The notes beneath the pieces were generated by a model, which was not told the DNA's origin, did no database searches, and saw only the letters and a list, made by a program, of their open reading frames with translations. Positions 23,013 through 57,466 of a DNA stretch of 64,000 bases are shown piece by piece (position 1 is the stretch's first letter; the number at the start of each line of letters is the position of its first letter). The DNA comes from Candidatus Gottesmanbacteria bacterium (GTDB lineage: Bacteria; Patescibacteriota; Microgenomatia; JAMCYU01): positions 2,683-66,682 of the forward strand of contig JAZDMI010000021.1 in NCBI GenBank assembly GCA_043801155.1, read 5' to 3'. A program made the position numbers and the translations under genes.

Positions 23013-23313
23013 ATCCCCACACTAATTTCCTATGTTTTATGTATACATTTTAAAAAGCAAAAAAGATGGAAATTTATACACAGGATCAACCAATGATTTA
23101 AAACGCCGTATTGAAGAACATAATTCAGGTTTAGTTTATTCGACGAAAAACCGAAAGCCATTTAAGTTAATATACTATGAAGCATATAGTGATGAAAGTG
23201 ATGCTAGAAATAGAGAGCACAATTTAAAGTTAAGAGCAAAAGCCCTAGGTCAATTAAAAAGAAGGATAAAGGAAAGTCTATCTAAATAATATAAATATAA
23301 TTAGTGTGGGGAT
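23013..23313. mobile_element. compact cassette: perfect 15-bp inverted repeats ATCCCCACACTAATT (23013-23027) / AATTAGTGTGGGGAT (23299-23313) bracketing a GIY-YIG ORF
   Basis: Inverted repeats read directly; they begin 1 nt after the rpsJ stop. Confidence 0.5.
23032..23289 (+). CDS. stand-alone GIY-YIG nuclease-domain protein (YhbQ/UPF0213-like)
   Basis: MFYVYILKSKKDGNLYTGSTNDLKRRIEEHN matches the GIY-YIG core. Confidence 0.8.
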   Translation: MFYVYILKSKKDGNLYTGSTNDLKRRIEEHNSGLVYSTKNRKPFKLIYYEAYSDESDARNREHNLKLRAKALGQLKRRIKESLSK

Positions 23314-23315
23314 AA

Positions 23316-23663
23316 ATGTCTGATATACAAAAATTAACCCAGCAAATTCTAAAATTTCGCAATAAAAGGGATTGGAAGCATTTCCATTATCCTAAGGACA
23401 TGGCCATTTCTTTGGCACTGGAGGCGGCCGAGGTTCTGGAACATTTTCAATGGAAAACCCAGGAAGAAGTTGAAGCGTATCTGAAGACGCATAAAACTCA
23501 TATCGCTGACGAACTGGCCGATGTTTTGTGGTGGGTGCTATTAATGAATCATGATTTGAATATTGATGTGATGAGGGCTTTCGATAAAAAATTAAAAATC
23601 AACGAAGAAAAATATCCGGTTGATAAAGCCAAGGGTACACATAAAAAATATACCGAGTTGTAA
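23316..23663 (+). CDS. MazG-like nucleotide pyrophosphohydrolase
   Basis: EAAEVLEHFQWK...ELADVLWWVLL, the EExxE/D motifs of the MazG family. Confidence 0.7.
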   Translation: MSDIQKLTQQILKFRNKRDWKHFHYPKDMAISLALEAAEVLEHFQWKTQEEVEAYLKTHKTHIADELADVLWWVLLMNHDLNIDVMRAFDKKLKINEEKYPVDKAKGTHKKYTEL

Positions 23664-23761
23664 GATGATATCTTTTATTTCTCAATAAATACTCTGACTT
23701 TAACTTCAATATTTGACCTCGGTGTTAAAATAGTAATTATTAGAATTATTAGGAGGCATAT

Positions 23762-23956
23762 ATGAGATATGAAAATAATTGTATGCATCCTGCCATTGTT
23801 TATATTCCGGATCTTAGGCCAGGGTCATATGATGCTAATGGTTTAATGGTTGGGTCACTGAAACATATTCCAAAAGAAAAAATTCAAAAGACAGATGTTT
23901 CAGCTAAATATAGACGAATAGGGCCTCCGATTCGTATTGTTGCCAAAGGGTATTAA
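23762..23956 (+). CDS. hypothetical protein (strong AGGAGG RBS)
   Basis: RBS aggagg 6 nt upstream; no known domain. Confidence 0.45.
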   Translation: MRYENNCMHPAIVYIPDLRPGSYDANGLMVGSLKHIPKEKIQKTDVSAKYRRIGPPIRIVAKGY

Positions 23957-23983
23957 ATTATTAATTTTCAATGTCGGCAACAT

Positions 23984-24358
23984 CTACTCTTTGTTTTTTT
24001 CTAATTCGTCTTTAATTTGCGGAGCGATATTATCCAAGAAAATCTGATCAACAAGTTCTTCGGTTATATGAGCTTCTCTTGGCCCAAAATGCTGCATAAA
24101 AACATGATGTTGCCCTATTTTATCCGGACTTAATTGTATTTGACAATAAGTATTGGGGAAGCTGCGGTGGATAAAATTACAAATGATTGTTCCACTTTTA
24201 AGCATAACTGTTTCCCATACAGAAATTTGATTTGGTTTCAAATCTTTATGTTTTGGAACTGGAATATCCTCTCCGACGAGCAGATAAACATCAGGCCAAT
24301 CTAAAGGATTGTACTCATTAAGAGAAATTGGTTGTCTTTCTTGTTTAGAGTTATTCAT
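23984..24358 (-). CDS. hypothetical protein
   Basis: 124-aa ORF directly following a truncated paralog gene start. Confidence 0.5.
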   Translation of the reverse strand: MNNSKQERQPISLNEYNPLDWPDVYLLVGEDIPVPKHKDLKPNQISVWETVMLKSGTIICNFIHRSFPNTYCQIQLSPDKIGQHHVFMQHFGPREAHITEELVDQIFLDNIAPQIKDELEKNKE

Positions 24359-24360
24359 AT

Positions 24361-24396
24361 TTAAACTTGTTCTCGAGCTTCAGGATTTATTGACAT
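24361..24396 (-). pseudogene. 11-codon remnant (MSINPEAREQV*) of a third copy of the 25620..25982 family, with its promoter/leader module retained upstream (24397-24450)
   Basis: Nucleotide similarity to the start of 25620..25982 (ATGGCAATAAATCCTGAAACTCTAGAACAA). A 4-nt deletion creates the TAA stop. Confidence 0.45.
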
Positions 24397-24550
24397 AAGA
24401 AAGATATTCTACACATTCAAGTTATAATATACAAATCCTGACTAATTCCCACATCGGTATTCTACCGAAACGGCTTTCCATATAAATGTGCCATTTCTGA
24501 GTGAGACACACTATGATAAAATGGGAACAATAACGGAAAGAAATTAACAC

Positions 24551-25057
24551 ATGTCTAAAACAAAAACAAATGAAATTGTTTATGCATTTATAGATAGCCA
24601 GAATCTCAATTTAGGAGTCAGGAGTCAAAATTGGATTTTAGATTTTGACCGTTTTCGTGTTTATTTAAAAGAAAAGTACGGAACAAAGAAAGCATTTTTG
24701 TTTATAGGTTATGTTGAAGGCAATCAAAGCTTATACACATATTTACAAAAATCCGATTATATATGCATATTTAAGCCTACGTTGGAACTTAATAAAAATA
24801 AAAAAGTAAGAATAAAAGGTAATGTTGATGCTGAATTAGTGCTTCATTCGATGATAGAGTATCCCAATTATGATAAGGCTATAGTTGTTTCCGGTGATGG
24901 AGACTTTCATTGTTTGGTGGAGTATTTAAAGGAGAAAAATAAGCTATTGAAAATAATTGTTCCAAATAGAAAATATTCTTCCCTGCTTAGAGAATTTAGT
25001 AACTATATAGTTAATATAGGGTTGATGCGAAGCAAGTTAGAATTGAGAAAGAAATGA
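24551..25057 (+). CDS. NYN-domain (LabA-like, PIN-related) protein
   Basis: VYAFIDSQNLNLG ... VVSGDGDF motifs typical of NYN/LabA. Confidence 0.65.
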   Translation: MSKTKTNEIVYAFIDSQNLNLGVRSQNWILDFDRFRVYLKEKYGTKKAFLFIGYVEGNQSLYTYLQKSDYICIFKPTLELNKNKKVRIKGNVDAELVLHSMIEYPNYDKAIVVSGDGDFHCLVEYLKEKNKLLKIIVPNRKYSSLLREFSNYIVNIGLMRSKLELRKK

Positions 25058-25059
25058 AA

Positions 25060-25112
25060 AGAGAGGCATTCCCTCGGGACGAAACCCTTTGGTAGTCCTC
25101 TCATCGTGATAA
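25060..25112 (+). terminator. GC-rich stem-loop after the NYN gene (GAGAGG...CCTCTC outer arms, GGG-ACGAAA-CCC inner hairpin), no U tract
   Basis: Seen directly. Confidence 0.35.
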
Positions 25113-25198
25113 AAACATTATACTAAATTTACCTCACTACTGTCAAATACTGTATAGTCTCAGAGGGAAAAAGCATTTTTCTACTTAATGTTTAAAGC

Positions 25199-25579
25199 TT
25201 ATAATTTGGGGAAAATTCCCGAGCTCATCACTTCAATAGCTCTAAGAATAGCTTCCCGGGATTCTTTAGTAGGTTGCACGTCGTCAATAATTGAATCATT
25301 TAGTTTGTATTTTGGCAATAATCTTCTGGCCGCGGCAATAAATTGTGTCTCGAATTCCATTGTCATTTCTCTATTAGGAACACTTTCGAAACCCGGAGAA
25401 TTAAGTATTTCCAGATATGTTTTTGCAGTTCTGACATTACCTTTCAGAGCATCTTGATCTAAAAGAAGCGTAGAACTTCCCCAAGGATCCCTTTCTAATA
25501 ACTTTTGGGCGACGACCCGATCATAAACTTCTGCACGTATATTTTTAAATGTTTCACTGGCATTTGACATAAGAGGCAC
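25199..25579 (-). CDS. hypothetical protein, paralog of 25620..25982
   Basis: Shared blocks LLLDQDALKGNV / LILDQFALIEHV, ILNSPGFE / ILNSSGYE, LLPKYKL / LIPKYGL. Confidence 0.55.
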   Translation of the reverse strand: MPLMSNASETFKNIRAEVYDRVVAQKLLERDPWGSSTLLLDQDALKGNVRTAKTYLEILNSPGFESVPNREMTMEFETQFIAAARRLLPKYKLNDSIIDDVQPTKESREAILRAIEVMSSGIFPKL

Positions 25580-25619
25580 ATTCTACCTTATTTAGGAAAA
25601 AAAGTATTCCCCTTTAAAT

Positions 25620-25982
25620 TTATTTTTGATTATTAGCTATATATAGAAAAACACCTGCCCGGCAAATTTGGTCTGGTTTGATTTTTTCTAAATAATCCGG
25701 CTTAAGTCCGTATTTTGGTATTAATCTCGAAACGGCATCAATTAAAGATGTCTCACGTTTTAAAAAATCTGCCCGATCAGGAAAGTTCTCATAGCCGGAT
25801 GAATTTAAAATTTCGATAATAGCTTTTGATACCATAACGTGTTCGATTAAGGCAAACTGGTCTAGGATAAGAGAACTTCTATTACAAGGATCCGGAACAA
25901 GGACTGATCTCGCCAGGTAAATATCAGTCATGATCTCAGGTGTTAAACCTAGTTGTTCTAGAGTTTCAGGATTTATTGCCAT
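25620..25982 (-). CDS. hypothetical protein, tandem paralog
   Basis: See above; own promoter/leader module (25983-26040) duplicated at 24397-24450. Confidence 0.55.
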   Translation of the reverse strand: MAINPETLEQLGLTPEIMTDIYLARSVLVPDPCNRSSLILDQFALIEHVMVSKAIIEILNSSGYENFPDRADFLKRETSLIDAVSRLIPKYGLKPDYLEKIKPDQICRAGVFLYIANNQK

Positions 25983-26151
25983 AAGAGAGATATTCTACAT
26001 ATTTGAGTTATAATATACAAATTCTGCCAAATTCCCATCTCTAAATTTATCTATGTCTCGGATAATAACTCATTAAAATGTATAGGCCAGCCACGTACAG
26101 TCGCCGAAATCCCGTTAATTAGACCCATATTACGGTTATATTAACGGTATA

Positions 26152-26183
26152 TTGACAAAATATCGTTAATATGTTAACATATT
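26152..26183 (+). promoter_or_regulatory. Fic promoter (TTGACA -35) overlapped by a perfect 16-bp palindrome AATATGTTAACATATT abutting the start codon; putative auto-operator. Further TTAACG/CGTTAA motifs lie upstream (26111-26150)
   Basis: Palindrome verified by reverse-complementing. Confidence 0.5.
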
Positions 26184-27056
26184 GTGATGAGATTAACGCG
26201 GTTACAGGTGATTTCTGAACTGTTTGCCCAGTACCAGACAAAAAAAATAAACAAAGAATCTCTTCTTTCTATGGTCGATGATGTGGAAATTGCAGAGAGG
26301 GTCTACAACTCCAATGCCATAGAAAACTCGACACTCACCTTGCCCGAAACGGAAAAAATCCTGCTTCAGCTTGAAGTGAATAGGCATATATCGCTTAGAG
26401 AAGTTTTTGAGGCAAAAAATTTAGCCCAAGTCTACAACTATATTAAAAATACTGCCCCTCAAAAACCACTTTCCCTAGATATGATTTTATTACTTCATAA
26501 AATCCTGCTTACCAATATCCGTGATGAAGTTGCAGGACAGTTTCGTACGGGAAACGAAATGGTGCGGGTAGGAAATCACATCGGCATACCCTCGGAATTT
26601 ATAAGTCAAAGGATTCAAGAAATGCTCGTTCAATATAATTCAGACATGGAAATTTCCTTTATTCATAAAATTGGCCGTTTACATGCGGAGTTTGAAAGTA
26701 TTCACCCTTTTATTGACGGAAATGGCAGGATCGGACGAGTTCTTAATAACTATTTACTTATCCGTGAAGGATTTCCTCCGATTATCGTTAGAAATAAAGA
26801 TAAAGAAACTTATTATGATGCCCTGCGTTCATATGACACTTCGCATAATTTTAAACCAATGATGCGCATAGTTGAGTTAGCTGTTTTAGAATCTTTTCAT
26901 AAACGTCTGGCTTACCTTGAGGGACAGCGGATAATTCCTCTTACTGAATATGCGGCTACTCAAAAAAGATCTTTCCATACTCTTTTAAATTCAAGCCGTC
27001 GTCAAACTATTCCTGCTTTTCGCGAGAAAGGCGTCTGGAAAATCGGAGTAAAATAG
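26184..27056 (+). CDS. Fic-domain protein (AMPylator / Fic-Doc family)
   Basis: Canonical Fic motif HPFIDGNGRIGR. Confidence 0.85.
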   Translation: MMRLTRLQVISELFAQYQTKKINKESLLSMVDDVEIAERVYNSNAIENSTLTLPETEKILLQLEVNRHISLREVFEAKNLAQVYNYIKNTAPQKPLSLDMILLLHKILLTNIRDEVAGQFRTGNEMVRVGNHIGIPSEFISQRIQEMLVQYNSDMEISFIHKIGRLHAEFESIHPFIDGNGRIGRVLNNYLLIREGFPPIIVRNKDKETYYDALRSYDTSHNFKPMMRIVELAVLESFHKRLAYLEGQRIIPLTEYAATQKRSFHTLLNSSRRQTIPAFREKGVWKIGVK

Positions 27057-27065
27057 GAGAAAATC

Positions 27066-27105
27066 AAAAAAGTCAAAAGAGAGGAAAGAGGAGAGAGAAA
27101 AATTT
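27066..27105 (+). repeat. purine-rich approx 40-nt leader repeat (AAAAAAGTCAAAAGAGAGGAAAGAGGAGAGAGAAAAATT), copy 1
   Basis: Direct repeat of 27583-27623; the pair flanks the GNAT gene. Confidence 0.6.
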
Positions 27106-27106
27106 A

Positions 27107-27577
27107 ATGAAAATAAATAAACAAATAAAAATCGAAAAACTTACCGAGAAGAGGTTTAATGAAGCGGTTAATTTGGTTTTGGTCGCCAACCTTGATACGC
27201 GGGAAGAAATTGAACATCACCTAAAACATCTGGATGCCCATTATATTGCCCTTGATAATGATAAAATTGTCGGAGTTATCGGTTGGTATCAGGATAATGT
27301 TCATTATGCCAATGAGGCTATGGGTGATAAATTTCCCGGAGAAGAGGCCTACTGGGTGGGATTTTTTACCACTGATAAAAATTACCGGAGGCAGGGAATT
27401 GGTTTTGCCCTGCTTCAAAAATTGGAGCAGGTAATAAAAGAAAAAGGAGAGGATAAAATTTGGGTATCCTCGGTGCCGGAAACAAAAGACTATTATCAAA
27501 GACAAGGATTTGAATTAGTTTTAATGGGATATATCAACGGCAACCAAAAATGTTTTATGGTTAAAAAACTTCAGTAA
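27107..27577 (+). CDS. GNAT-family N-acetyltransferase
   Basis: Acetyl-CoA binding motif RRQGIGFALL. Confidence 0.8.
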   Translation: MKINKQIKIEKLTEKRFNEAVNLVLVANLDTREEIEHHLKHLDAHYIALDNDKIVGVIGWYQDNVHYANEAMGDKFPGEEAYWVGFFTTDKNYRRQGIGFALLQKLEQVIKEKGEDKIWVSSVPETKDYYQRQGFELVLMGYINGNQKCFMVKKLQ

Positions 27578-27623: not shown

Positions 27624-29099
27624 ATGTTTGAACAATCATTTAAAAATATTGATGATATTCTTCACCGGGATGCCGGATGCGCCACGGAATTAGATTATAT
27701 AGAACAAACTTCATGGATTCTATTCTTGAAATACCTTGATGATTTAGAGGAAACAAAAAGGAAAGAAGCGGTTTTAAAAAATAGACAATATGAATATATT
27801 ATTGCTCCTGAATTTCGCTGGAGCGCTTGGGCGGAACCAAAAACGAAAGATGGCAAATTAGATATGAATAAGGCGTTAACCGGAGACGATCTAAGAGACT
27901 TTGTAAATTTAAAACTTTTTCCATATCTTAAGAAATTTAAAATCGACAATAACGAGAATCAAACAACTATTGAATATAAAATTGGAGAAATTTTCAGTGA
28001 GCTAAAAAACAGGATTGAAAGCGGATACAGACTTCGTGAAATTCTTAACATTGTAGATACGATGCATTTTCGAACCGATAGCGATAAACACGAACTCTCA
28101 CATCTTTATGAAGCTAAAATTAAGAACATGGGAAATGCCGGACGAAACGGCGGAGAATATTACACTCCTCGTCCGCTTATTAAAACGATAGTTAAGGTGG
28201 TAATCCCAAAGATTGGCGATACTATATATGATGGAGCCTGCGGATCTGCCGGATTTCTAGTAGAGTCTTTTGATTATCTTAAACAAAGTAAAGAATTATC
28301 TACCTCAGAATCCGTAAAGCTACAAAATAATACTTTTTACGGTAAGGAAATAAAATCACTTGCATATATTATCGGTGTTATGAATATGATTCTTCATGGT
28401 ATTGAAGCGCCGAATATTCTCCATACAAATACGCTTGCTCAAAACATCAATGATATCGAGGAAAAAGATCGGGTTGACGTAATCCTTACGAATCCGCCAT
28501 TTGGTGCAGGAATAGGTCGGGAAATTCAGCAAAATTTTCCGATAAAAACCGGCGAGACGGCATATCTTTTCCTCCAACACTTTATCAAAATGCTCAAAGC
28601 CGGAGGAAAAGCCGGAGTGGTGATTAAAAATACTTTTCTTTCTAATACTGATAACGCATCCGCTTCGCTTCGTAAACGTCTTCTTGAGAGTTGTAATCTT
28701 CACACCGTGCTTGATTTGCCTGGCGGCGTCTTTACGGGAGCAGGTGTAAAAACCGTGGTATTGTTTTTTGAAAAAGGCTCGCCAACCAAAAAAGTATGGT
28801 TCTATCAGTTAAACCTTGACCGCAATCTAGGCAAAGGTAATCCCTTAAGCGAAGCGGATCTATCAGAATTCGTCGAACTGCAAAAAACCAAAGCAGGTAG
28901 CAAAAATTCTTGGAGCGTAGACATAAAAGATATTAATCAAACAACATTTGATTTATCGGTAAAGAATCCAAACAAAGGGAGAGAAGTAACCCTACGCGAA
29001 CCGAAAGAGATTTTGGAGGGAATGAGGAAGCTAGACAAGGAAAGTGAAAATACATTTAAGATTATTAAAAACATATTAAATACTGGAATAAATGAATAA
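27624..29099 (+). CDS. hsdM: type I restriction-modification system methyltransferase subunit
   Basis: N6-adenine MTase motifs: GEYYTPRP (motif I region), LTNPPFG (motif IV). Confidence 0.92.
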   Translation: MFEQSFKNIDDILHRDAGCATELDYIEQTSWILFLKYLDDLEETKRKEAVLKNRQYEYIIAPEFRWSAWAEPKTKDGKLDMNKALTGDDLRDFVNLKLFPYLKKFKIDNNENQTTIEYKIGEIFSELKNRIESGYRLREILNIVDTMHFRTDSDKHELSHLYEAKIKNMGNAGRNGGEYYTPRPLIKTIVKVVIPKIGDTIYDGACGSAGFLVESFDYLKQSKELSTSESVKLQNNTFYGKEIKSLAYIIGVMNMILHGIEAPNILHTNTLAQNINDIEEKDRVDVILTNPPFGAGIGREIQQNFPIKTGETAYLFLQHFIKMLKAGGKAGVVIKNTFLSNTDNASASLRKRLLESCNLHTVLDLPGGVFTGAGVKTVVLFFEKGSPTKKVWFYQLNLDRNLGKGNPLSEADLSEFVELQKTKAGSKNSWSVDIKDINQTTFDLSVKNPNKGREVTLREPKEILEGMRKLDKESENTFKIIKNILNTGINE

Positions 29100-29730
29100 T
29101 TTATTAGCCTTGTTAGAGAAATATCAGACCCAAAATATTATCGCCGTCATAGCTTTAATATTGGCTTATTTAGCGTACAGAAAATCGGTTATTGATGAGT
29201 ATAGGAGTTGGTTGGATCTGGCAAAATCTTTCCAACACGAATTGAATTACGCAAAATATTGGATAGGAAATAGTTATGAAAAGATGATGAGTATAGATTG
29301 GTCGAATCCCTCCAGATTTGTTTATCCTCTTACCGCCGAAGCCGCGAAAGCGTTAATTTGGAAAGGACATCCGCCAAAGAGAATATTCCCAGATGATTTT
29401 TTTGATAAATTAGCTATATATAACGAACGTATTCAGGCATTTAACCATTTTTTAATGATTCAAGGAATCAATTATGTAGTGGCGGAAGTTGATAATAAAA
29501 ATGAAAAAATTTCAGAAAAAGCAAAGCATATTAATTATATCATCCATAATGATCTTATAGGTAGCCAGGATAATTATCACTTACACAATCTTTATAATTA
29601 TTTTAGTTGTCAATTGAAAATGATTGAAAAAGCAGATCTTTTGCTGATTCCATGGTATTTTAAATATCCTGAACGAATAGTTCTTGCTACTATTTTTATT
29701 TATATTATAGTTGATTATTTTATTCAGTGA
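29092..29730 (+). CDS. hypothetical membrane protein embedded between hsdM and hsdS (translationally coupled at both ends)
   Basis: Overlaps the hsdM stop by 8 nt and the hsdS start by 4 nt; N- and C-terminal hydrophobic segments; no known domain. Confidence 0.55.
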   Translation: MNNLLALLEKYQTQNIIAVIALILAYLAYRKSVIDEYRSWLDLAKSFQHELNYAKYWIGNSYEKMMSIDWSNPSRFVYPLTAEAAKALIWKGHPPKRIFPDDFFDKLAIYNERIQAFNHFLMIQGINYVVAEVDNKNEKISEKAKHINYIIHNDLIGSQDNYHLHNLYNYFSCQLKMIEKADLLLIPWYFKYPERIVLATIFIYIIVDYFIQ

Positions 29731-30884
29731 TTATGAAAACCAACTGGCAAACAAAAAAACTCGAAGATGTAGCAAATGTTCATGGTGGTGGTACTCCACC
29801 AACCAGTCACCCAGAATATTTTCAAGGAAATATAAATTGGTATTCTCCAACTGAGATACCTAAATTCGAAGTTACAACGCTCAAAGAAAGTCAGAAAAAA
29901 ATTTCCGATTCTGCAATAAAATTTACTACTATTTCAAGAACAAATTCAGTCCTTTTAACAAGCAGAGCTACAATTGGTACGGTTGGTATTTTGTCAACTG
30001 CTTCCGGATATAGTCAGGGCATAAAAGGAATCGAACCGGGTCCCGAACTAGACTCGTGGTATCTAGCGCATTGGTTGAGATCAAATAAAGATGAGATTAT
30101 TAATAAGGCTTCTGGTACAACCTTTAAGGAAATTAGTACAAGTGAAATAAAAAAGCTAGAAATTCCTATCCCTCCAATTGCTCAGCAAAAGAAAATTGTT
30201 AATTCCATAGAGAATATCTTGGGAAAAATTGAAAAGGCAAAAGAGAATACAGAGAAAAATCTGCAAAACGCCAAAGCTCTTTTTGAATCATATTTACAAA
30301 GTATTTTTGCGAATCCAGGAAAAGATTGGGAAGAGAAAAGATTAGGTGATGTTTGTATGGTCATTGCTGGTCAATCACCGGAAGGAAAATTCTATAACAA
30401 ATCGGGTAGGGGTTTACCTTTCTATCAGGGAAAAAAAGAATTTGAAGAAAGATATCTTGGGAAACCAACAACATGGACAACAGACATTACCAAAGAGGCG
30501 CAAAATGGTGATATTTTAATGTCAGTTCGAGCCCCTGTGGGACCTATTAATTTTGCAACTCAAAAAATTTGCATCGGTCGGGGTCTTACCGCAATTCGAG
30601 CCGGAAAAGATATTGATGAAAACTTTTTATTTTATAATTTACTCTCAAAAGAAAAAGAAATCATTGGTAATGCCGGAGCTGTATTTGCATCAATCAATAA
30701 ATCCGACATTGAGAGTTTAAAATTATTTTTACCATCTCTTCCCGAACAAAAATCTATTGATATAAAACTTGACACAATTTATGCCGAAACAAAAAAACTG
30801 GAAGCAATTTATAAACAAAAATTAGCTGATTTAGAAGAGCTAAAAAAATCGGTTTTGAGAAAAGCATTTAAAGGAGAATTGTAA
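29727..30884 (+). CDS. hsdS: type I R-M specificity subunit (two target-recognition domains)
   Basis: Duplicated TRD architecture with the conserved central (LAEQKKIV) and C-terminal (LPEQKSI) spacer repeats. Confidence 0.9.
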   Translation: MIMKTNWQTKKLEDVANVHGGGTPPTSHPEYFQGNINWYSPTEIPKFEVTTLKESQKKISDSAIKFTTISRTNSVLLTSRATIGTVGILSTASGYSQGIKGIEPGPELDSWYLAHWLRSNKDEIINKASGTTFKEISTSEIKKLEIPIPPIAQQKKIVNSIENILGKIEKAKENTEKNLQNAKALFESYLQSIFANPGKDWEEKRLGDVCMVIAGQSPEGKFYNKSGRGLPFYQGKKEFEERYLGKPTTWTTDITKEAQNGDILMSVRAPVGPINFATQKICIGRGLTAIRAGKDIDENFLFYNLLSKEKEIIGNAGAVFASINKSDIESLKLFLPSLPEQKSIDIKLDTIYAETKKLEAIYKQKLADLEELKKSVLRKAFKGEL

Positions 30885-50344: not shown

Positions 50345-50878
50345 TTACGAGGTTGGTTCGGGGGGTAAAAATTCCTCACCACTGGAATCTGAAGATGTAA
50401 CATATTCTCCCGGTTTAAGCCATTGGATATAAGTACAACCGGTAGCAACTCTTTTAGCGCTATCCCAACCGGCCGTCTCACACTTTTTCATTTTCTTGCC
50501 GTTAGCAGTAGTATAAAGAACTAATTTTTGCCCGCACTTTGGGCAATCCTCATCAAGTTTCTCGGTGGTACCATTTATCCACTCAATATAGTCGCAACCC
50601 TCGGCTTTTCTAGTTTCCTTATTCCAAACATTAGTTGAGCATTTTTTCATTTTCTTGCCAAACCGGGTAACTACCAAAAGAAGTGGAGAACCGCACTTCG
50701 GACATTTTTCCTCAAGAGTTTGCGGTTCTACCGCCAGCCACTTAACAAAAGTACACCCTTCATTTTGATGGGTTTCCTTATTCCAGCTGCCCTTTGAGCA
50801 ACGCTGAAGTTTTCTGCCGGTTGGTGTTTCAATAATATCGGTTAATTTGGCTCCGCATTTCGGGCATACATCATCCAT
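50345..50878 (-). CDS. protein made of three tandem topoisomerase-type C4 zinc-ribbon repeats
   Basis: Three approx 58-aa repeats, each CPKCG...L...G(K/R)K..(K/R)C...W(N/D)...GC.Y(I/V).W. Confidence 0.6.
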   Translation of the reverse strand: MDDVCPKCGAKLTDIIETPTGRKLQRCSKGSWNKETHQNEGCTFVKWLAVEPQTLEEKCPKCGSPLLLVVTRFGKKMKKCSTNVWNKETRKAEGCDYIEWINGTTEKLDEDCPKCGQKLVLYTTANGKKMKKCETAGWDSAKRVATGCTYIQWLKPGEYVTSSDSSGEEFLPPEPTS

Positions 50879-50934
50879 ATAGAAAATAGTATATCAGAAA
50901 AATTAAAAATAATCTTGAGCTATTTTGGAAAATT

Positions 50935-51390
50935 TTGCTTTTTATATTAAAACTTTACTATAATAAAGTTAATATGGTCGAAGGTGACAGAGATGTCCTT
51001 TCGAAAATAAAGACCAGAGTTAAACATATTGGTCAGGCTTTTTTACCTGATAAAGAGGAATTCATACCCTTATCTGATATTAATGCCGATACCGTATGCA
51101 AGACAATCCGGAAGTGTCTAGGCACGCCAATTCAAAAAAGGTTTATCGGAAATGCTTGGGCAAATCCTTTCTCGGTGGTTGATGTCCTTGTCCATATGGG
51201 TTATTTAGATCCCTGGGTGGAGTCTGATTATTTAGAGAAGTTTCCCGAAGAATATCGGGCAACCCGTAAAGCTCTGAATGACCTGGTTGCGAATAAGATA
51301 TTAAAGCCTGTACAATTAGAAGATAAAGATAGTCATCGCGAGGATTTATATTATCAAGTAGTAAATAGTCAAGATCTGCAAAATAATTAA
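50935..51390 (+). CDS. hypothetical protein
   Basis: ORF; no known domain. Confidence 0.45.
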   Translation: MLFILKLYYNKVNMVEGDRDVLSKIKTRVKHIGQAFLPDKEEFIPLSDINADTVCKTIRKCLGTPIQKRFIGNAWANPFSVVDVLVHMGYLDPWVESDYLEKFPEEYRATRKALNDLVANKILKPVQLEDKDSHREDLYYQVVNSQDLQNN

Positions 51391-51404
51391 TCTATTAAAA
51401 ATTT

Positions 51405-52292
51405 ATGGATCAAGAAAACCAGACAACTATTAATTCTCAACCAGTACCAGTCGCCCCCCAACAAAAAACTAATTTATGGATGATTGTTTCGCTAGTTTTG
51501 ATTACCGCCATACTTGTTGGCGGAGGCGTATTTTTTTTGATGAACTCAACTAAAAAAGAACCAACCGGTTCTTTAAGCCAGGCTGAACCAAAAGCAACAT
51601 CCCTGCCAATTGTTTCTACTCAACCTACATTAACGCCGGTTGCGATTCCCAGTCTAATATCAATTGATAATACCTGGAATAAATATACCAATTCTGTCTT
51701 GGGTTTTTCTCATAAGGTTTTAAAAAATATGATTGAACCATACGGTCTTTGCCCCTTTAGCGATACTAATGGTGATCATTCATATCGGCCAAAACCAAGT
51801 AGCGTCCCGGTTAAGATTTTTGAAGAAGGAATAAATGTTTATATCGCCAGCGAATATTTTTATAAATTGACAGGAGAAACCAATGAAAATGGCAGGTCAT
51901 TTTTTTCTGGTTGCGATAAAATCACCAACTCGGTTAGTCTGATTAAAGATATGAAAAACTATTTTTCACCGGCCTGGAGAATCGTGGTTAAAAATATAGC
52001 CAATGATAGTGAGTTAGATCAATTTCTGAAAGACAGGTATGGTGTAGGTTGCAGCTTGGGCGAAAAAAAACCGGCTAAACAAAATGGGGTTTTTGATATT
52101 CATATCAAAGGAGATGGATTAGATTTAGGGGAAACCAAATGCCCGATAAATTATATAACTGTCGTTAAATACTATCCGGAAAAGCAAAAAGTGGCTGCTT
52201 GGGATATTGGTCAAAGTTGCAGTTTTACCACTGACTTAAATTATCAAAACTGTCTTGATCAGGAAATGACTGATAGTTTTACCTTCGAATAA
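51405..52292 (+). CDS. hypothetical membrane-anchored secreted protein
   Basis: TM helix after a Q/P-rich N-terminus; Cys-containing extracellular domain. Confidence 0.5.
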   Translation: MDQENQTTINSQPVPVAPQQKTNLWMIVSLVLITAILVGGGVFFLMNSTKKEPTGSLSQAEPKATSLPIVSTQPTLTPVAIPSLISIDNTWNKYTNSVLGFSHKVLKNMIEPYGLCPFSDTNGDHSYRPKPSSVPVKIFEEGINVYIASEYFYKLTGETNENGRSFFSGCDKITNSVSLIKDMKNYFSPAWRIVVKNIANDSELDQFLKDRYGVGCSLGEKKPAKQNGVFDIHIKGDGLDLGETKCPINYITVVKYYPEKQKVAAWDIGQSCSFTTDLNYQNCLDQEMTDSFTFE

Positions 52293-52318
52293 GGTATTTT
52301 TAAAGTAAAATCTTTAGA

Positions 52319-52696
52319 TTAATCTTCAAATTCTTCAGATTCTGGAGATTCTGAAAAGTGAAGTATCTGATTACATACCCTGACAAAATTAAGTTGCTCG
52401 TTTAGTTCTTCTTTATCATAACCATTACCAATACCGGTATGAATTTTGTGGATAAGATTCCATACCGAGGATTTTTGATAACCTCGTTGCAATAATTCAA
52501 GGTCATCTGATTTTGCTGTTCTACATAATACCCTAGATAGTGCATGCTCTACAGCTGTACTCGTATCAGGAATAACCCGCGAGCCTATAGCTTTTTGTTC
52601 TTTGGTAATAAATCGTTGAACAAATCCTTCGGCTTTTTCCCTTGAAAAATACGGGGTTCGATAATCAATTCCAAACTCTGCGCCCTTATTATTCAT
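52319..52696 (-). CDS. hypothetical protein
   Basis: ORF; acidic C-terminus; no known domain. Confidence 0.45.
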   Translation of the reverse strand: MNNKGAEFGIDYRTPYFSREKAEGFVQRFITKEQKAIGSRVIPDTSTAVEHALSRVLCRTAKSDDLELLQRGYQKSSVWNLIHKIHTGIGNGYDKEELNEQLNFVRVCNQILHFSESPESEEFED

Positions 52697-52731
52697 ATAA
52701 ATATATATCCTATAATATTATGGTTAGATTG

Positions 52732-53760
52732 TCAAGAGGCGCTGATTTGCTCCTTAATGAAGTTACGTAGTTCCTGCCAGTCGTCGGATTTGGGAACAAG
52801 GATAAACTGGCCTTGGGAATTTTTCCCGGACTTTAAAATATTGGCATCTGACGGAACTATTTGGCTGATCTTATATTCACTTGGGTTAACAATTAAAGAA
52901 ATAATTGTCTTGGTAGTAGCTAAGTCCAAATCGGTTTTAACGAATTTAACTAAACTGTTAAAAATCTTATCCACGTTTTTTAGGGCATTTAATGTTAACA
53001 ACTTATCTTTAATACCGATTAAAATTGTTTGTTGTCTGGCTCCCCGGCCAAAATCCGAGCCATCCTGAGCCGAATGACGCGAGCGGGCATATTTTAAAGC
53101 CATAATTCCGTCAATATGCGTTTTACCGGTATCAAAGTGAAGATGTTCGTAGCGGCAGGTAAATTGTTTTTCCAATTCAAATCCGCTTAGGGTGGCCGAA
53201 AGATTAGCGACTTCTTCCGGTGATTTTCCACAGGTTTCCAGTTCCTTGCCGGCCACCGGATAAAAATAATCGTCAAACGTCTTGGCAATATTTATATCAA
53301 TTCCGCCCAGAGAGTCAATCAGGCGGATAAAGTTTGGGAAATCAACAACTATAGCTTGCCCGATTGATAATCCGGTAATTGAGCCAACCGTTTCTTTGGC
53401 TAACGCAAATCCGCCCTTAGAGTAGGCTTCATTAATTTTCATATTATTGACATACATATCGCGGGGAATAAAAATAAGCGCGGCTTTTTTATTAATAGTA
53501 TTTATATGAACAATCATCTCAGAATCAGCTAAGATACCACCTTCATGTCCGGCTCCGCCCTGACCTAAAAGCAAGATATTATATTCTCCTTGATTTGCAG
53601 GTTTGGGGGTTATATTAGAAACTGAATTAATGGTGGTAGTTTGCTCAAGCGGGCTGATTATCTTATTGGTTTTTCTTGAGAGTAAAAAGTATGTCAAAAC
53701 ACTAATAACTATTAGTACTAGGACTATTATCGGAATGATAATTAAAACTGGTTTCTTCAT
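52732..53760 (-). CDS. LytR-CpsA-Psr (LCP) family cell-envelope phosphotransferase
   Basis: N-terminal TM anchor; LCP-domain-like core (LLLGQGGAGHEGG..SEMIVHIN). Confidence 0.7.
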   Translation of the reverse strand: MKKPVLIIIPIIVLVLIVISVLTYFLLSRKTNKIISPLEQTTTINSVSNITPKPANQGEYNILLLGQGGAGHEGGILADSEMIVHINTINKKAALIFIPRDMYVNNMKINEAYSKGGFALAKETVGSITGLSIGQAIVVDFPNFIRLIDSLGGIDINIAKTFDDYFYPVAGKELETCGKSPEEVANLSATLSGFELEKQFTCRYEHLHFDTGKTHIDGIMALKYARSRHSAQDGSDFGRGARQQTILIGIKDKLLTLNALKNVDKIFNSLVKFVKTDLDLATTKTIISLIVNPSEYKISQIVPSDANILKSGKNSQGQFILVPKSDDWQELRNFIKEQISAS

Positions 53761-53837
53761 TTTAATATTATCGCATTATTATGATAAACTGCCAAGTGAA
53801 TAAATTATTGACTTAATATACATAAATCATTAAGATA

Positions 53838-54440
53838 TTGCTGATGAAAAAATATTCAATTTTTATAATTCTCGTTATTTTATTATTTGCTATAATACTA
53901 ATTAAGATGCAAAATTCAAATAATCAAAATAACCAACCTCCCATAGTAACACCAACCTCCGCACCGGAAAGCCTAAGCCCGACGAGTTCTGCGTCAGTCT
54001 CAGCATCTGCGGTGACAACTACGGAAACTCAAGCATTAATTAAAACCTCAAAAGGCGATATCAATCTAAGTTTATATCCGGACGCAGCGCCAAAAACAGT
54101 AGCCAATTTTATTAATAAAGCCAACAGCGGTGACTATAAAAATCTAACTTTCCACCGGGTTGAAGATTGGGTTATCCAGGGAGGCGATCCTTTAGGAAAT
54201 GGTACCGGCGGCGGAGAAATTGCTACCGAAATTAGTAATAAACCATTTGTCATTGGTTCTTTGGGAGTTGCCCGAGGGCAAGATATCAAAATCTCCAACG
54301 ACAGCCAGTTTTTTATTACCAAAACCGAGGCTTCGTGGCTAAACGGCCAATATACCAACTTCGGGCTGGTGATATCAGGAATGGAAGTAGTTAATCAAAT
54401 TCAAGTCGGCGACAAAATTTTAGACATTATTATTAAATAA
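53838..54440 (+). CDS. cyclophilin-type peptidyl-prolyl cis-trans isomerase (secreted)
   Basis: FHRVEDWVIQGGDPLGNGTGGGE. Confidence 0.85.
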   Translation: MLMKKYSIFIILVILLFAIILIKMQNSNNQNNQPPIVTPTSAPESLSPTSSASVSASAVTTTETQALIKTSKGDINLSLYPDAAPKTVANFINKANSGDYKNLTFHRVEDWVIQGGDPLGNGTGGGEIATEISNKPFVIGSLGVARGQDIKISNDSQFFITKTEASWLNGQYTNFGLVISGMEVVNQIQVGDKILDIIIK

Positions 54441-54482
54441 GAAAAATCTTTTTTCTTACCTCATTGTAGTATAATCTAGTGC

Positions 54483-54923
54483 ATGCCACCCGAACAAGAA
54501 AAAATCCTCTATCATGGTACTACTTATGGCCGTATTAAAAGGGCTGATGCTTTATATGGTTATATTAGACCGCAAGAACCAGGCATGTCAGGAAATATGA
54601 CGGATGATTATAAGACGGCAGCAGTCTTTGCTCGTCTTGCCTCTTGTACGGAGAATGGTGATATGCCGATTATACTACATATAAAACTATCAAACTCAGA
54701 AATTGTCGAACTTGGGAAAATGACACATACCAACAAAAATACTTTTGGATTAACTAAAGCGATATCTGCAGAGTTAATTCCTGAAGATTTTTTTAGCAAG
54801 ACACCTTTTTTAAAAAAACCAATTGCTTTACAGGATGAAGCTGATGGGTATGTAACCTTTTATATTATTGATAGATCAAAAATTATTAATTCCACCATAG
54901 TCCATGATGAGAATATTACTTAG
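54483..54923 (+). CDS. hypothetical protein
   Basis: ORF; no known domain. Confidence 0.45.
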   Translation: MPPEQEKILYHGTTYGRIKRADALYGYIRPQEPGMSGNMTDDYKTAAVFARLASCTENGDMPIILHIKLSNSEIVELGKMTHTNKNTFGLTKAISAELIPEDFFSKTPFLKKPIALQDEADGYVTFYIIDRSKIINSTIVHDENIT

Positions 54924-55881
54924 ATTACTGCTTATACTTATAATTCTTATTGCCCTTGTCGGTGGTGTCTCCTTTTATTTTTTATCTCCAGTTGAAAATA
55001 TTAATAAACCAGTCATTTTTACTTTACAAAAAGACGATAATAAACTTGATGCGGCAATAAAACTTAAAGAACAAAAATTAATAAGAAATGTGGCGGTATT
55101 TTCTTTTCTGCTGACGTATTTTGCGGCTGATAAAAAAATACTGCCGGGTGGATATAGGTTAAATTCCAATATGAATGCTTGGCAGGTTATGGAAAAGATT
55201 ACCAAAAAACCTGATTTAGTCTGGGTGGTTATCCGGGAGGGTTTACGCAAAGAACAAGTGGCGATTGTTTTAGCCAAAGCCCTAGGTTGGACAGATAAAC
55301 AAAGAAGTTTATGGCTTGACAACTATACCAGTTCTAATCCTGAATATATTGAAGGTGTTTATTTCCCCGATACCTACCTTATTCCGGTTGATGAAAACGG
55401 CGCTGATATTGTTCGGAGGTTTATCAATAATTTTAATGCCAAAATGGCACCGCTTTTTCCTGAATTTGCTAAAAAGGACATTCTCTGGACTACCGGTATC
55501 AAAATTGCCTCATTAATCCAGCGTGAAGCCGGGGGATCGGCTGATATGCCGATTATTGCCGGAGTGATTTGGAATCGGCTTAATAAGGGAATGAAGCTGG
55601 AAATTGATGCTACGATGCAGTATACCCGGGGTGAACAAAACGATAACTGGTGGGGACCAATAGATCTGGAAGAGAAATTAACGGATTCGCCATATAACAC
55701 TTATCTATACAAAGGTTTACCACCGACGCCGATTTGTAATCCTGGTTTGGAGGCTATTAAAGCAGCCTTAAATCCGGCGGAAACCGACTGTATATTTTAT
55801 TTGCATGATGCTCAAAAACAGATTCATTGTGCCAAAACCTACGAAGAACACAAGAGAAATATCATAGAGTTTCTTAATTAA
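54904..55881 (+). CDS. mltG: MltG/YceG-family endolytic transglycosylase, second paralog
   Basis: GLPPTPICNPGLEAI signature; TM anchor. Confidence 0.8.
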   Translation: MMRILLRLLLILIILIALVGGVSFYFLSPVENINKPVIFTLQKDDNKLDAAIKLKEQKLIRNVAVFSFLLTYFAADKKILPGGYRLNSNMNAWQVMEKITKKPDLVWVVIREGLRKEQVAIVLAKALGWTDKQRSLWLDNYTSSNPEYIEGVYFPDTYLIPVDENGADIVRRFINNFNAKMAPLFPEFAKKDILWTTGIKIASLIQREAGGSADMPIIAGVIWNRLNKGMKLEIDATMQYTRGEQNDNWWGPIDLEEKLTDSPYNTYLYKGLPPTPICNPGLEAIKAALNPAETDCIFYLHDAQKQIHCAKTYEEHKRNIIEFLN

Positions 55882-57306
55882 ATGACTTCGTCATATATGG
55901 TAAAATGGGTGTTTGTGAAAAGAGCTATTTTACTCAACCTTTTCCTTTTTGTTTTTGTTTTAAAGCCTGTCTTTGCTTTGGAAAACAATAAATTTGGAAT
56001 TCATATTATTCAGCCGGAAGATCTCCCCCGGGCGGCGGAGCTGGTTAACAGCAATAGCGGTGATTGGGGGTATGTAACAATTGTGATTGCGGATAATGAT
56101 AGGAATAAAGATAAATGGCAAAGTTTTTTTGATGACTGCCGGCAAAAGCATTTAATCCCGCTGGTCAGAATTGCGACACATCTGGAAAATGATATTTGGA
56201 GTAAACCTGAAGAAAATCAGATTAGTGAGTGGGCAAAGTTTCTTGATAGTCTTAATTGGCCGGTTAAAACCCAATATATCAGCATTTATAATGAACCGAA
56301 TCATAACAAAGAATGGGGAGGAAAGTCAGATCCGGTCGAATACGCGAAAATTTTGGATAAAGCGTTAACCATCTTTAAACAAAAAAACAGCAATTTTTAT
56401 ATTCTGAATGCCGGTTTTGATCAAGCTGCCGGTAATTCCCCGACGACTATTGACGAAGAATGGTATATTGCGCAAATGGAAAAAGAAGTCCCGGGTATTT
56501 TTAGCCGTTTAGATGGTTGGGTATCCCATTCTTATCCTAATCATGGTTTTATTGGAAAACCATGGGAGACTGGTCGGGCATCGGTTGCCGGTTACCAATG
56601 GGAACTGTCAATTCTAAAATCTCAGTTTGGCGTGACAAAAAACCTACCAATTTTTATTACCGAGACGGGTTGGCCGCATAGATTAGACAATAGGGTAAAG
56701 GGCATAGGGTATAGTTACTACGATGAAAAGTTAACGGCCGAGTATATAAAACAGGCGTTTGAAAATGTTTGGCTAGCTGATGATCAGGTCATAGCGGTAA
56801 CCCCTTTTATTTTAAATTATCCGGCGTATCCTTTCGAAAACTTTTCCTGGTTGGATAGTAGCGGGCAACCACTTTCTCAATACCAAGAGATTAAATCAAT
56901 TAAAAAAAATATTGGTCAACCGGAACAAAAACAAAGCTTTGCATTAATTAAGTCGCCTTTTCCTCCAATAGTTACCACGAACTTGGTTTTTAACGGCAAA
57001 GTGATATTAAAAAATACCGGTCAGTCAATATGGGGAGAAAAACCATTTATATTAAAGGCCTTTGCTCCCGGTTTAAAGTTATCTGATTTAATCTTGCCTT
57101 CCGGCCAGTTAGTTAAACCCGGGCAAAGAGCGGAACTGGATTTTACTTTGGAGACAGTTAATGTCGGCGGAGATTATGTTGCCGGCTGGCAAGGACTGAC
57201 ACCCTATGAAATTAAAGTTTTTGGTATTTGGGGGTTGACAGCATCGCCAAATACACCCTTAAATAACATCCTCGAAAATATTTTTGGTTTCTGGTTTAAT
57301 CTTTAA
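55882..57306 (+). CDS. secreted glycoside-hydrolase-like protein (paralog of 48920..50308)
   Basis: IYNEPNHNKEWGG block (GH5-like NEP); signal peptide. Confidence 0.45.
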   Translation: MTSSYMVKWVFVKRAILLNLFLFVFVLKPVFALENNKFGIHIIQPEDLPRAAELVNSNSGDWGYVTIVIADNDRNKDKWQSFFDDCRQKHLIPLVRIATHLENDIWSKPEENQISEWAKFLDSLNWPVKTQYISIYNEPNHNKEWGGKSDPVEYAKILDKALTIFKQKNSNFYILNAGFDQAAGNSPTTIDEEWYIAQMEKEVPGIFSRLDGWVSHSYPNHGFIGKPWETGRASVAGYQWELSILKSQFGVTKNLPIFITETGWPHRLDNRVKGIGYSYYDEKLTAEYIKQAFENVWLADDQVIAVTPFILNYPAYPFENFSWLDSSGQPLSQYQEIKSIKKNIGQPEQKQSFALIKSPFPPIVTTNLVFNGKVILKNTGQSIWGEKPFILKAFAPGLKLSDLILPSGQLVKPGQRAELDFTLETVNVGGDYVAGWQGLTPYEIKVFGIWGLTASPNTPLNNILENIFGFWFNL

Positions 57307-57312
57307 TACTAT

Positions 57313-57341
57313 TTGCATTTTTTGGGCTCTTGAATTATAAT
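57313..57341 (+). promoter_or_regulatory. rplC-operon promoter TTGCAT-17-TATAAT
   Basis: Consensus hexamers with a 17-nt spacer. Confidence 0.55.
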
Positions 57342-57416
57342 AAGTGAACTTTGATATGGAGGTGATTTCACCGACAAAAAGTTAGAATAGCGGACTGGCA
57401 CAACGTATTTAGTCTA

Positions 57417-57438
57417 GGTGCAGTCGGCACCTTTTTTT
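57417..57438 (+). promoter_or_regulatory. leader hairpin GGTGC-AGTCG-GCACC plus T7 (terminator-like) between promoter and rplC start, with an alternative pairing GTGATTTCA (approx 57362) / TGAAATCAC (approx 57444): putative attenuator
   Basis: Stems read directly. Confidence 0.4.
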
Positions 57439-57466
57439 GTGCCTGAAATCACTTAAACTAAAAAAT

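Follow-up and report, generated by a model that had tools for sequence, protein, structure and literature searches.

The window analysed here is a stretch of 64,000 nucleotides from a Gottesmanbacteria-like metagenome-assembled genome (Microgenomates, candidate phyla radiation (CPR)), and its subject is the gap of 34,454 bp between rpsJ and rplC, the genes for ribosomal proteins S10 and L3. We consider it highly probable that this gap is an operon split at rpsJ|rplC that was inherited within a clade and holds a variable slot of defence genes, and that it is not one recent island. Judged by gene content, gene order and composition, the interval is a composite of a frame that is native and inherited and a slot whose content varies between genomes.

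The rpsJ gene (22704-23012, +; Pfam Ribosomal_S10, E=2.1e-34) is the last ribosomal gene of an rpsL-rpsG-...-fusA-tuf-rpsJ unit, and rplC (57467-57904, +; Pfam Ribosomal_L3, E=1.1e-12; L3 chains of the PDB, E=1.6e-36) is followed downstream by rplD, rplW, rplB, rpsS, rplV, and rpsC. A sequence-only reading of this DNA had placed the end of rpsJ at 23012 and the start of rplC at 57467 and had taken everything between them for a single accessory insertion of 34 kb. The gap is real, the named cargo was verified by Pfam, and the operon is truly split between the two genes. The idea of a single insertion did not survive the comparison with relatives, since these have the same split and the same border genes, which the sequence-only reading had itself named as the sign of an old, lineage-specific rearrangement.

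The split is shared with close relatives

The closest relatives were found in the protein database, with identities to the window of 88-93% for S10, 75-81% for Obg, and 59-69% for a protein of 474 amino acids (aa) encoded next to rplC. In all five contigs with an S10 identity of at least 88% (88-93%), rplC does not follow rpsJ and a MazG-like gene is found there, whereas in relatives with an S10 identity of 86% or lower rpsJ and rplC are 0.05-2.2 kb apart, for instance 134 bp in locus L106 and 126 bp in L126.

The longest of the five intervals, that of JBFOMW010000021.1 (S10 93%), spans 31.2 kb and is fully covered by three overlapping loci that were merged exactly. Its left and middle parts have the order rpsJ, MazG-like, DUF8173 with small open reading frames (ORFs), methyltransferase, MutH, Shedu SduA, SIR2, GmrSD, methyltransferase; its right part has the order Zn-ribbon, DEAD helicase, Obg, ..., a 303-aa protein, LytR, a 190-aa protein, cyclophilin, YceG, PD-(D/E)XK, a 205-aa protein, a 470-aa protein, rplC. 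In JBFOMZ010000187.1 (S10 92%) the gap is 15.7 kb, with the order rpsJ, MazG-like, DUF8173, ..., GNAT, EcoRI-methylase, GmrSD/HNH, ..., DEAD, Obg, ..., YceG, ..., glycosyltransferase, methyltransferase, rplC. The gap measures only about 4.7 kb in JBFOMW010000009.1 (S10 91%), where rpsJ is followed by MazG-like, LytR, two or three ORFs, a 465-470-aa protein, and rplC, and 4.6 kb in JAMCYU010000005.1 (S10 91%), where the order is the same. In JBFOMZ010000046.1 (S10 88%) the gap is at least 10 kb and begins with rpsJ, SPW, MazG-like, DUF8173, ..., PvuII-type restriction-modification (R-M), LexA, and E2/ThiF. The sequence of Microgenomates LiPW_16, in which S10 is not in view, has YceG, PD-(D/E)XK, ..., a 455-aa protein, and rplC, with no rpsJ in the available 3.3 kb.

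Both borders of the interval thus recur. The rpsJ-MazG junction is found in five other contigs from four assembly accessions and in Logan read-set assemblies, the junction of the 470-aa-type protein with rplC recurs in four other assemblies (contigs L162, L163, L169, and L170), the count of assemblies with this protein before rplC being five (four close relatives and LiPW_16), and one 602-kb contig holds the entire homologous 31-kb interval. For the 474-aa protein there are more than 3,000 homologs, and among these the named top matches are from Microgenomates. Among distant homologs of this protein, one is encoded near Obg without ribosomal genes (L173) and one after rpsJ and rpoD without rplC (L174). 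These mixed contexts suggest that the interval was founded by native genes and not by foreign DNA.

The conserved frame of the interval

The left border of the interval is the gene of the MazG-like pyrophosphohydrolase (23316-23663, +; Pfam MazG-like, E=4.2e-19). Its product is 74-78% identical to that of the gene following rpsJ, in the equal position, in L165, L167, L169, L170, and L171, with 78% for JBFOMW010000021.1. The right-hand frame (44271-57306, both strands) comprises genes for DUF192 (-), Obg (-), a DEAD helicase, a B12-radical SAM protein, a GH-like protein, a Zn-ribbon protein (-), a 295-aa protein, LytR (-), a cyclophilin, MltG/YceG, and the 474-aa protein, a conserved Microgenomates protein whose gene (55882-57306) abuts the rplC promoter. 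Reciprocal tblastn against JBFOMW010000021.1 gave identities of 81% for Obg, 83% for DEAD, 84% for Zn-ribbon, 55% for the 295-aa protein, 63% for LytR, 65-74% for cyclophilin, 73% for MltG, and 69% for the 474-aa protein, and the block at 44.6-57.3 kb is nearly collinear with that of this closest relative, terminating in both at rplC. The relatives have no counterpart of DUF192, of the radical-SAM and GH-like genes, or of three small ORFs of the right-hand frame. The tetranucleotide correlation with the whole window at 44-58 kb (r=0.91-0.94) is like that of the flanks (0.87-0.97). Because the protein identities and the nearly collinear order match the closest relative and the composition matches the flanks, the right-hand frame is taken to be native and not acquired accessory DNA.

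The promoter and leader of rplC

The promoter of the rplC operon (TTGCAT-17-TATAAT, 57313-57341, +) has its -35 element starting 7 nt past the stop codon of the last inserted gene. It is followed by a leader (57351-57439, +) that consists of UGGAGGUGA at 57357-57365, a variable middle, a terminator-like hairpin at 57416-57432, and a T-run. The consensus promoter and the terminator-like leader had been noticed in the sequence-only reading and are indeed present; the further supposition that rplC acquired them is contradicted by unsplit relatives, which already have the promoter, UGGAGGUGA, and the terminator. In the spacers of relatives with adjacent genes, TTGCAT-17-TATAAT comes first, then, some 15 nt past the -10 element, the invariant UGGAGGUGA, and finally a GC hairpin with a T-run just before rplC, and the leader of the split relatives is nearly identical to that of the window. 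Since both elements are present between rpsJ and rplC where these genes are adjacent, the predicted promoter and leader are ancestral and were not gained after the split.

When 16 leaders were analyzed with RNAalifold, the terminator hairpin was recovered, and two of its positions show a compensatory change from A-U to G-C. The covariance model R1 scored 72.7 bits on the window leader (E=2.3e-11) and gave 27 matches at E<=0.01 in 2.35 Mb (window and training sequences included), 10 of them outside the training set. All 27 lie on the rplC strand, and each one that could be placed relative to rplC is directly upstream of it; the 26 loci besides the window are L029, L032, L036, L085, L091, L093, L095, L097, L105, L107-L110, L112, L115, L118, L120, L127, L143, L150, L152, L162-L164, L169, and L170. 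In the ten insert-bearing loci with an R1 match, the leader has remained beside rplC, and in every locus with an insert (L032, L097, L107, L112, L150, L115, the split relatives, and the window) the inserted DNA is upstream of the leader. A permissive Rfam search (E<=10) of 57200-57520 returned nothing relevant to the leader. The motif UGGAGGUGA is complementary to the anti-Shine-Dalgarno sequence of 16S rRNA. By analogy with the E. coli S10 leader, discussed below, the rplC leader is probably an attenuator, and it is a candidate for a new ribosomal-protein leader or regulatory RNA.

Some further observations concern the leader itself and its neighbors. The terminator loop contains CCUCC in many leaders and could pair with the 5' motif UGGAGGUGA. 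A long-range pairing of the UGGAGGUGA region with sequence past the terminator, which appeared in the centroid fold, was dropped because it is not conserved in the relatives. Neighboring lineages have conserved leaders of two other types before rplC, both of them ended by a terminator just ahead of the gene: one reads GAGAUACUUUGGUAUACU ... CCAAAAGUCUCGGAUGAG ... CGACCUCAACCGAGGUCG plus a U-run and the other GAUGCCCAAAC ... AGCCUA..GGC ... GGUAGCCUAAGGCUAUC plus a U-run. These two types were taken from the rpsJ-rplC spacers of L002-L018, L082, L088-L090, L099, L121, and L141, and of L013-L026 (Levybacteria-like).

The variable slot

Reciprocal tblastn found nothing corresponding to the DNA at about 23.7-44.3 kb in the rpsJ-rplC interval of the closest relative, which is fully covered. 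In 4-kb steps from 22 to 44 kb, the GC content is 0.32-0.36, and tetranucleotide usage correlates with that of the whole window at 0.69-0.86, compared with 0.89-0.97 elsewhere. Genes of defence type are crowded within 14 kb, namely hsdM-hsdS-hsdR, Fic, NYN, an Mrr-like nuclease, and a Cas4-like nuclease. The slot is therefore described as a compositionally deviant, genome-specific region of about 20 kb with mostly defence-type cargo, the defence role being a prediction from the genes. The sequence-only reading had assigned accessory or defence DNA to the whole interval, and this stands for these roughly 20 kb (~23.7-44.3 kb), which are deviant and have no counterpart, and fails for the MazG-like gene and for 44.6-57.3 kb, which are shared and native. 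In the same way, the difference in composition that it had proposed to look for between 23-57 kb and the flanks is found at 22-44 kb and is absent at 44-58 kb, which resembles the flanks.

The left part of the slot (23664-27577, both strands) is a mosaic of a 124-aa ORF (-), NYN, two paralogous small ORFs (-), Fic, and GNAT. PADLOC matched the Fic protein to SoFic/PDC-S04 (E=3.7e-36), and the NYN protein and the Mrr-like and Cas4-like nucleases also had defence-type matches. Sharing with relatives is patchy in this part: GNAT is 82% and the protein of the gene at 25199 is 41% identical to products of JBFOMZ010000187.1 (L167), and the protein of the gene at 23984 is 57% identical to one of JBFOMZ010000046.1 (L171). 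The two small ORFs, 25199-25579 (-) and 25620-25982 (-), are adjacent, encode 120-126 aa, and are apparent paralogs with a homolog at the matching place in JBFOMZ010000187.1. A direct repeat of 85 nt with 88% identity (24367-24451 and 25953-26037) lies over the start regions of small minus-strand ORFs.

A complete type I R-M operon follows (27624-33972, +; Pfam N6_Mtase, E=1.5e-65; Methylase_S, E=1.5e-44; ResIII; EcoEI_R_C), composed of hsdM (27624-29099), an ORF (29092-29730), hsdS (29727-30884), a second ORF (30887-31606), and hsdR (31618-33972). The two embedded ORFs, of 212 and 239 aa, had no match in Pfam, PADLOC, or NCBIfam, and no type I R-M homologs were found in the relatives' intervals. 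Next come single-gene cassettes (34131-37519, +; assigned by Pfam and PADLOC) for a 99-aa ORF, Nudix, an FtsK-gamma-like winged helix-turn-helix protein, the Mrr-like nuclease, DUF6498, and a PD-(D/E)XK/Cas4-like protein; most have a TTGCMTTTT-type promoter of their own, and this stretch has the lowest GC content (0.30-0.32). The right part of the slot (37872-44274, both strands; assigned by Pfam) holds DegV (-), a 694-aa protein (-), small ORFs, a SAM methyltransferase, and an EngB-like GTPase, and its genes are absent from the interval of the closest relative. The gene of the 694-aa protein (39379-41463, -) had no match in Pfam, NCBIfam, or PADLOC and lies in the most deviant stretch (38-42 kb, r=0.69). 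For the unknown ORFs of the slot as a group, NCBIfam and PADLOC gave no assignments.

The equivalent slot of the relatives holds other cargo. It contains MutH, Shedu SduA, SIR2, GmrSD, and methyltransferases in one, EcoRI-methylase and GmrSD-HNH in another, and PvuII-type R-M, LexA, and E2-ThiF in a third. This variable cargo follows the MazG-like gene in three contigs and precedes the DEAD/Obg side in two, where that side is covered. Signs of mobility were sought in several ways. Pfam scans of the 41 ORFs of the interval, with NCBIfam and PADLOC on the unknowns, revealed no integrase, recombinase, or transposase; no tRNA or tmRNA target and no paired end repeats were found, the repeat families detected at 22.5-58 kb being promoter motifs; and megablast of 23.0-44.3 kb against plasmids and phages gave no match.

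Within the interval and at rplC we observed a promoter-like cassette, TTGC[C/A]TTTT-N14-TA.A[A/C]T, in seven copies (34932-43251 and 57313-57341) against 0.02 expected. All seven copies lie within the interval or at rplC, mostly preceding single slot genes, and some are up to 93% identical over 30 nt. A promoter type common to slot genes and rplC hints at gene flow within the lineage or at long residence.

The GIY-YIG cassette behind rpsJ

A perfect 15-bp inverted repeat (23013-23027 and 23299-23313), the left arm of which starts at the first base after the rpsJ stop codon, had been proposed as the insertion point of the whole 34 kb. It bounds only a cassette of 301 bp (23013-23313, +) with an 85-aa GIY-YIG ORF (23032-23289; Pfam GIY-YIG, E=1.5e-18), and this cassette is missing in all five relatives, none of which has a GIY-YIG homolog. 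A matching right-end repeat near 57.3 kb, which the single-insertion idea would have called for, was sought and no att-like pair was found across 22.5-58 kb. The spacer between rpsJ and the MazG-like gene is 3-52 nt long in four of the five relatives, and in the fifth (JBFOMZ010000046.1) the SPW gene lies between them; in the window it measures 303 nt and consists of one arm, the 85-aa ORF, and the other arm. The cassette is accordingly the youngest event at the locus, gained recently in this genome.

Over its first ten bases (ATCCCCACAC), the left arm is similar to the native spacer ACCCCCACAC of JBFOMZ010000187.1, and part of the repeat arm may therefore be target sequence. Neither a second copy of the repeat pair in the window nor a target-site duplication was found, and the 15-mer arm gave 20 single, unpaired matches in viral contigs, as chance predicts. 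Homologs of the GIY-YIG protein with 67% and 51% identity are intergenic as well: in L173 (548-745) the homolog lies between two copies of a hairpin, and in L104 it lies just upstream of rplC.

Gaps between rpsJ and rplC in a wider survey

A survey of two sets of 80 loci each, one centred on S10 homologs in GTDB species representatives and the other on L3 homologs in metagenomes, in which rpsJ and rplC were placed by tblastn and the L3 start sites are ORF-based estimates, gave 127 loci with both genes. In most of these the gap is 0-300 bp. It reaches at least 0.85 kb in 27 of the 127, with a maximum of 8.8 kb in a Saccharibacteria-like genome, so that the 34 kb of the window is about four times the largest gap of the sample. 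Among the 34 Microgenomates-like loci from GTDB, the median gap is about 190 bp and the largest 2.2 kb, and the gaps in Chloroflexota are about -4 to 150 bp. In four L3 loci (L083, L087, L114, and L115), rpsJ is missing from the 3-10 kb upstream. No gene family common to the 27 other loci with inserts of at least 0.85 kb was found; their contents are diverse and include an ATPase, DinB/Nudix, and peptide deformylase. The rpsJ-rplC junction has been opened repeatedly among CPR bacteria, with heterogeneous inserts.

The genome and metagenome scans reached an S10 identity of 86% at best, and closer relatives came from the protein database only. In both the GTDB S10 scan and the metagenome L3 scan, relatives at this distance (S10 86% or lower) are almost all unsplit; by themselves, these two scans would wrongly have favored a recent insertion.

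In many Saccharibacteria-like genomes (loci L038-L040, L042, L056, L063, and L068), rpsJ and rplC are 3-9 kb apart, and the recurrent occupants of the gap include a RarA-like AAA protein, an ATPase of the ABC-F type, and small membrane proteins adjoining rplC. The pattern looks like a further inherited split, this one in another CPR class.

Other features of the window

The transcription/translation supercluster of the window includes rpoB (6544-9948, +), rpoC (10023-13751, +), rpsL (13758-14219, +), rpsG (14226-14699, +), fusA (19122-21263, +), and tuf (21461-22654, +). The str operon is broken too, by a pilin-like gene (-), PGA_cap, and a P-type ATPase gene between rpsG and fusA (14884-19028). 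Relatives hold the same genes at the identical place (72% identity for the pilin-like protein, 59-66% for PGA_cap, and 68-76% for the P-type ATPase), and this interruption is for that reason read as a second inherited split. In many Levybacteria-like loci, fusA and tuf are 2-6 kb apart. There is no tRNA anywhere in the 64-kb window, and Rfam 15 at the gathering threshold found no families across it. The window contains two YceG/MltG paralogs (5173-6141 and 54904-55881) with a mutual identity of 38%, the second of which is the frame gene upstream of rplC.

The L3 protein of the window is unusually short, with 145 aa; its residues 31-142 align to residues 87-198 of Thermus L3 in the PDB alignment, and it is without about 56 residues of the N-terminal domain relative to Thermus L3. 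A gene truncated by the insertion was considered and rejected, since the L3 proteins of the relatives are equally short and align end to end. Short L3 proteins (139-145 aa, 69-81% identical to that of the window) are common to the split clade, while the L3 of most other Microgenomates has 200-350 aa.

Origin of the interval and alternative explanations

The course of events that we propose starts from the organization of transcription. In this Microgenomates branch, rpsJ would be the tail of the rpsL-rpsG-fusA-tuf-rpsJ unit, and the rplC-rplD-... unit would have its own sigma-70-type promoter and a terminator-ended leader, which we read as an attenuator. With two separate units, the junction would be a boundary between transcription units. 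An insertion between the stop codon of rpsJ and the promoter of rplC would leave the expression of both units intact and, because promoter and leader make rpsJ|rplC an operon boundary, the junction would tolerate insertions. In the ancestor of the clade with an S10 identity of at least 88%, native genes may have arrived at this junction, among them the MazG-like gene by rpsJ and LytR and the 470-aa protein by rplC. The interval may then have grown and shrunk by accretion to the 4.6-4.7, 15.7, 31.2, and 34.5 kb of today, with turnover of the slot most likely occurring via recombination between the conserved flanking genes. The latest event in this genome was the entry of the 0.3-kb inverted-repeat-bounded GIY-YIG cassette between rpsJ and the MazG-like gene.

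Other explanations have to be weighed against an inherited split with a variable slot. If a single mobile or accessory island of about 34 kb had recently been inserted at the inverted repeat and rplC had then gained its promoter and leader, the many defence-type genes of the interval, the low GC content and deviant oligonucleotide usage at 22-44 kb, the position of the inverted repeat directly after the rpsJ stop codon, and the adjacency of the two genes in GTDB relatives at about 80% S10 identity would all be accounted for. We nevertheless think this very improbable, because five or six related contigs share the split and its border genes, the block at 44.6-57.3 kb shows synteny with a relative and is native in composition, unsplit relatives already have the promoter and leader, the inverted repeat encloses 301 bp only, and neither an integrase, a tRNA, a direct repeat, nor a match to a plasmid or phage was found. 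Furthermore, independent gain or transfer of the whole 34 kb in the relatives is excluded by their differing content. An error of assembly or binning, namely a chimeric contig that joins rpsJ and rplC fragments through unrelated DNA, is hardly credible: the source is metagenome-assembled and the composition does shift at about 22-24 kb and at about 44 kb, but the rpsJ-MazG junction is seen again in five other contigs (four accessions) and in Logan assemblies, the 470-aa|rplC junction in four other assemblies, and the whole 31-kb interval on a single 602-kb contig.

Somewhat less remote, though still improbable, is an interval that is old vertical chromosome in its entirety, opened by one ancient inversion or translocation and without ongoing gene flow, so that the differences between genomes would reflect divergence and loss. 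The finding of wholly different gene families in the slot of each genome argues against this, as do the distinct composition of the window slot and the GIY-YIG cassette, which was demonstrably gained recently; the conserved frame genes, the TTGCMTTTT-type promoters common to the genes of the interval and rplC, and the lack of mobility genes would agree with it.

Several points weigh against the inherited split with a variable slot as well. The EngB-like GTPase and DegV in the slot look like housekeeping genes and may be merely relocated. Obg is on the opposite side of DEAD in the relative, so local order differs, and the 474-aa|rplC border is not universal, JBFOMZ010000187.1 having methyltransferase and glycosyltransferase genes beside rplC. 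The clade is defined by identity ranks of S10, tuf, and Obg and not by a phylogeny, and the direction of change, from 4.7 kb up to 34 kb or the other way round, is not polarized. In addition, pairs of relatives' contigs share one GenBank assembly accession: GCA_040960625.1 (L165 and L169; S10 93% and 91%) and GCA_040961635.1 (L167 and L171; S10 92% and 88%) each include two contigs with an rpoC-...-rpsJ cluster of their own, and each accession must hold more than one organism. Promoter activity, attenuation, defence function, and the mechanism of recombination are all inferred.

A more far-reaching version, which we put forward tentatively and consider rather doubtful, is that the interval is a true integrase-free hotspot for the exchange of defence genes in the most conserved cluster of the genome, tolerated because an undescribed leader with UGGAGGUGA and a terminator insulates the rplC operon, and that this leader is perhaps a new type of attenuator sensing a ribosomal protein or free 30S subunits.

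Comparison with known systems

In Gammaproteobacteria and Bacilli, small multigene insertions at operon boundaries, followed by full separation, have been described for the ribosomal supercluster (PMC6735719, PMC8046335). Such Brandis-type insertions resemble the interval in having a site at a transcription-unit boundary, in being inherited within a clade, in the later drift apart of the two parts, and in the often native nature of the inserted genes. In the window, a promoter lies immediately downstream of the interval, and the split is present in all five contigs with an S10 identity of at least 88% and absent at 86% or lower, in terms of identity ranks. In contrast to the Brandis-type cases, the interval hosts a hypervariable defence slot, reaches 31-34 kb, and separates halves that keep their strand and order. 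The boundary also differs, being tufA|rpsJ (str|S10) in those studies and rpsJ|rplC, one gene further on, here, which follows from promoter and leader preceding rplC in this lineage.

In Archaea, uS10 is always independent of uL3-uL4-uL23 (PMC10833476). The archaeal arrangement and that of the window are alike in that S10 is uncoupled from L3 and the L3 cluster forms a separate unit; however, the arrangement described here is a derived state in one CPR subclade, the nearest outgroups of which have adjacent genes, and rpsJ and rplC are still collinear at a distance of 5-34 kb. Cyanobacteria and plastids are similar to Archaea, with rps10 following tufA.

Like defence islands, the slot has clustered systems of defence type, cargo that differs between conserved flanks, and deviant composition. 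Unlike them, it lies inside the ribosomal-protein supercluster, has no integrase or recombinase, and is interleaved with Obg, EngB-like GTPase, and DEAD genes, and its defence role is predicted from genes. An integrative genomic island would differ from the window interval, which lacks absence of the whole segment in relatives, an integrase, tRNA or att repeats, and deviant composition over the entire segment. The GIY-YIG element is comparable to cassettes that resemble insertion sequences or miniature inverted-repeat transposable elements in its terminal inverted repeats and in the empty orthologous site of the relatives, and differs from them in being present as a single copy without a target-site duplication.

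The leader of the E. coli S10 operon is an L4-dependent attenuator (PMC3616713), and the L4 leader of Archaeoglobi lies upstream of rplC (PMC7247131). The leader of the window is similar to both as a promoter-proximal leader, with an intrinsic terminator, before the first gene of an operon that encodes L4. In contrast to the E. coli S10 leader, it precedes rplC and not rpsJ, has no match in Rfam, and has the 5' Shine-Dalgarno-like UGGAGGUGA as its hallmark. New here are the site of the break, which falls one gene inside an S10 operon of the E. coli type, the occurrence of the break and the growth of the interval within a CPR subclade, and the use of the opening for a variable defence slot without recognizable mobility genes.

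The adjacency of rpsJ and rplC is among the most stable of bacteria, and in this CPR subclade it has been broken, exactly at a pre-existing promoter and leader, and the break has been inherited. This supports the idea that transcription-unit boundaries, and not gene identity, set where the ribosomal supercluster opens. The rplC leader is the most interesting by-product of the comparison. For the binning and phylogeny of CPR bacteria, a word of caution follows, as the blocks of ribosomal-protein genes that are used as contiguous marker scaffolds are not contiguous in this clade. Gaps of 0.1, 4.7, 15.7, 31, and 34 kb form a natural series for studying how, in genomes that are small and host-dependent, an opening of this kind turns into a variable defence locus.

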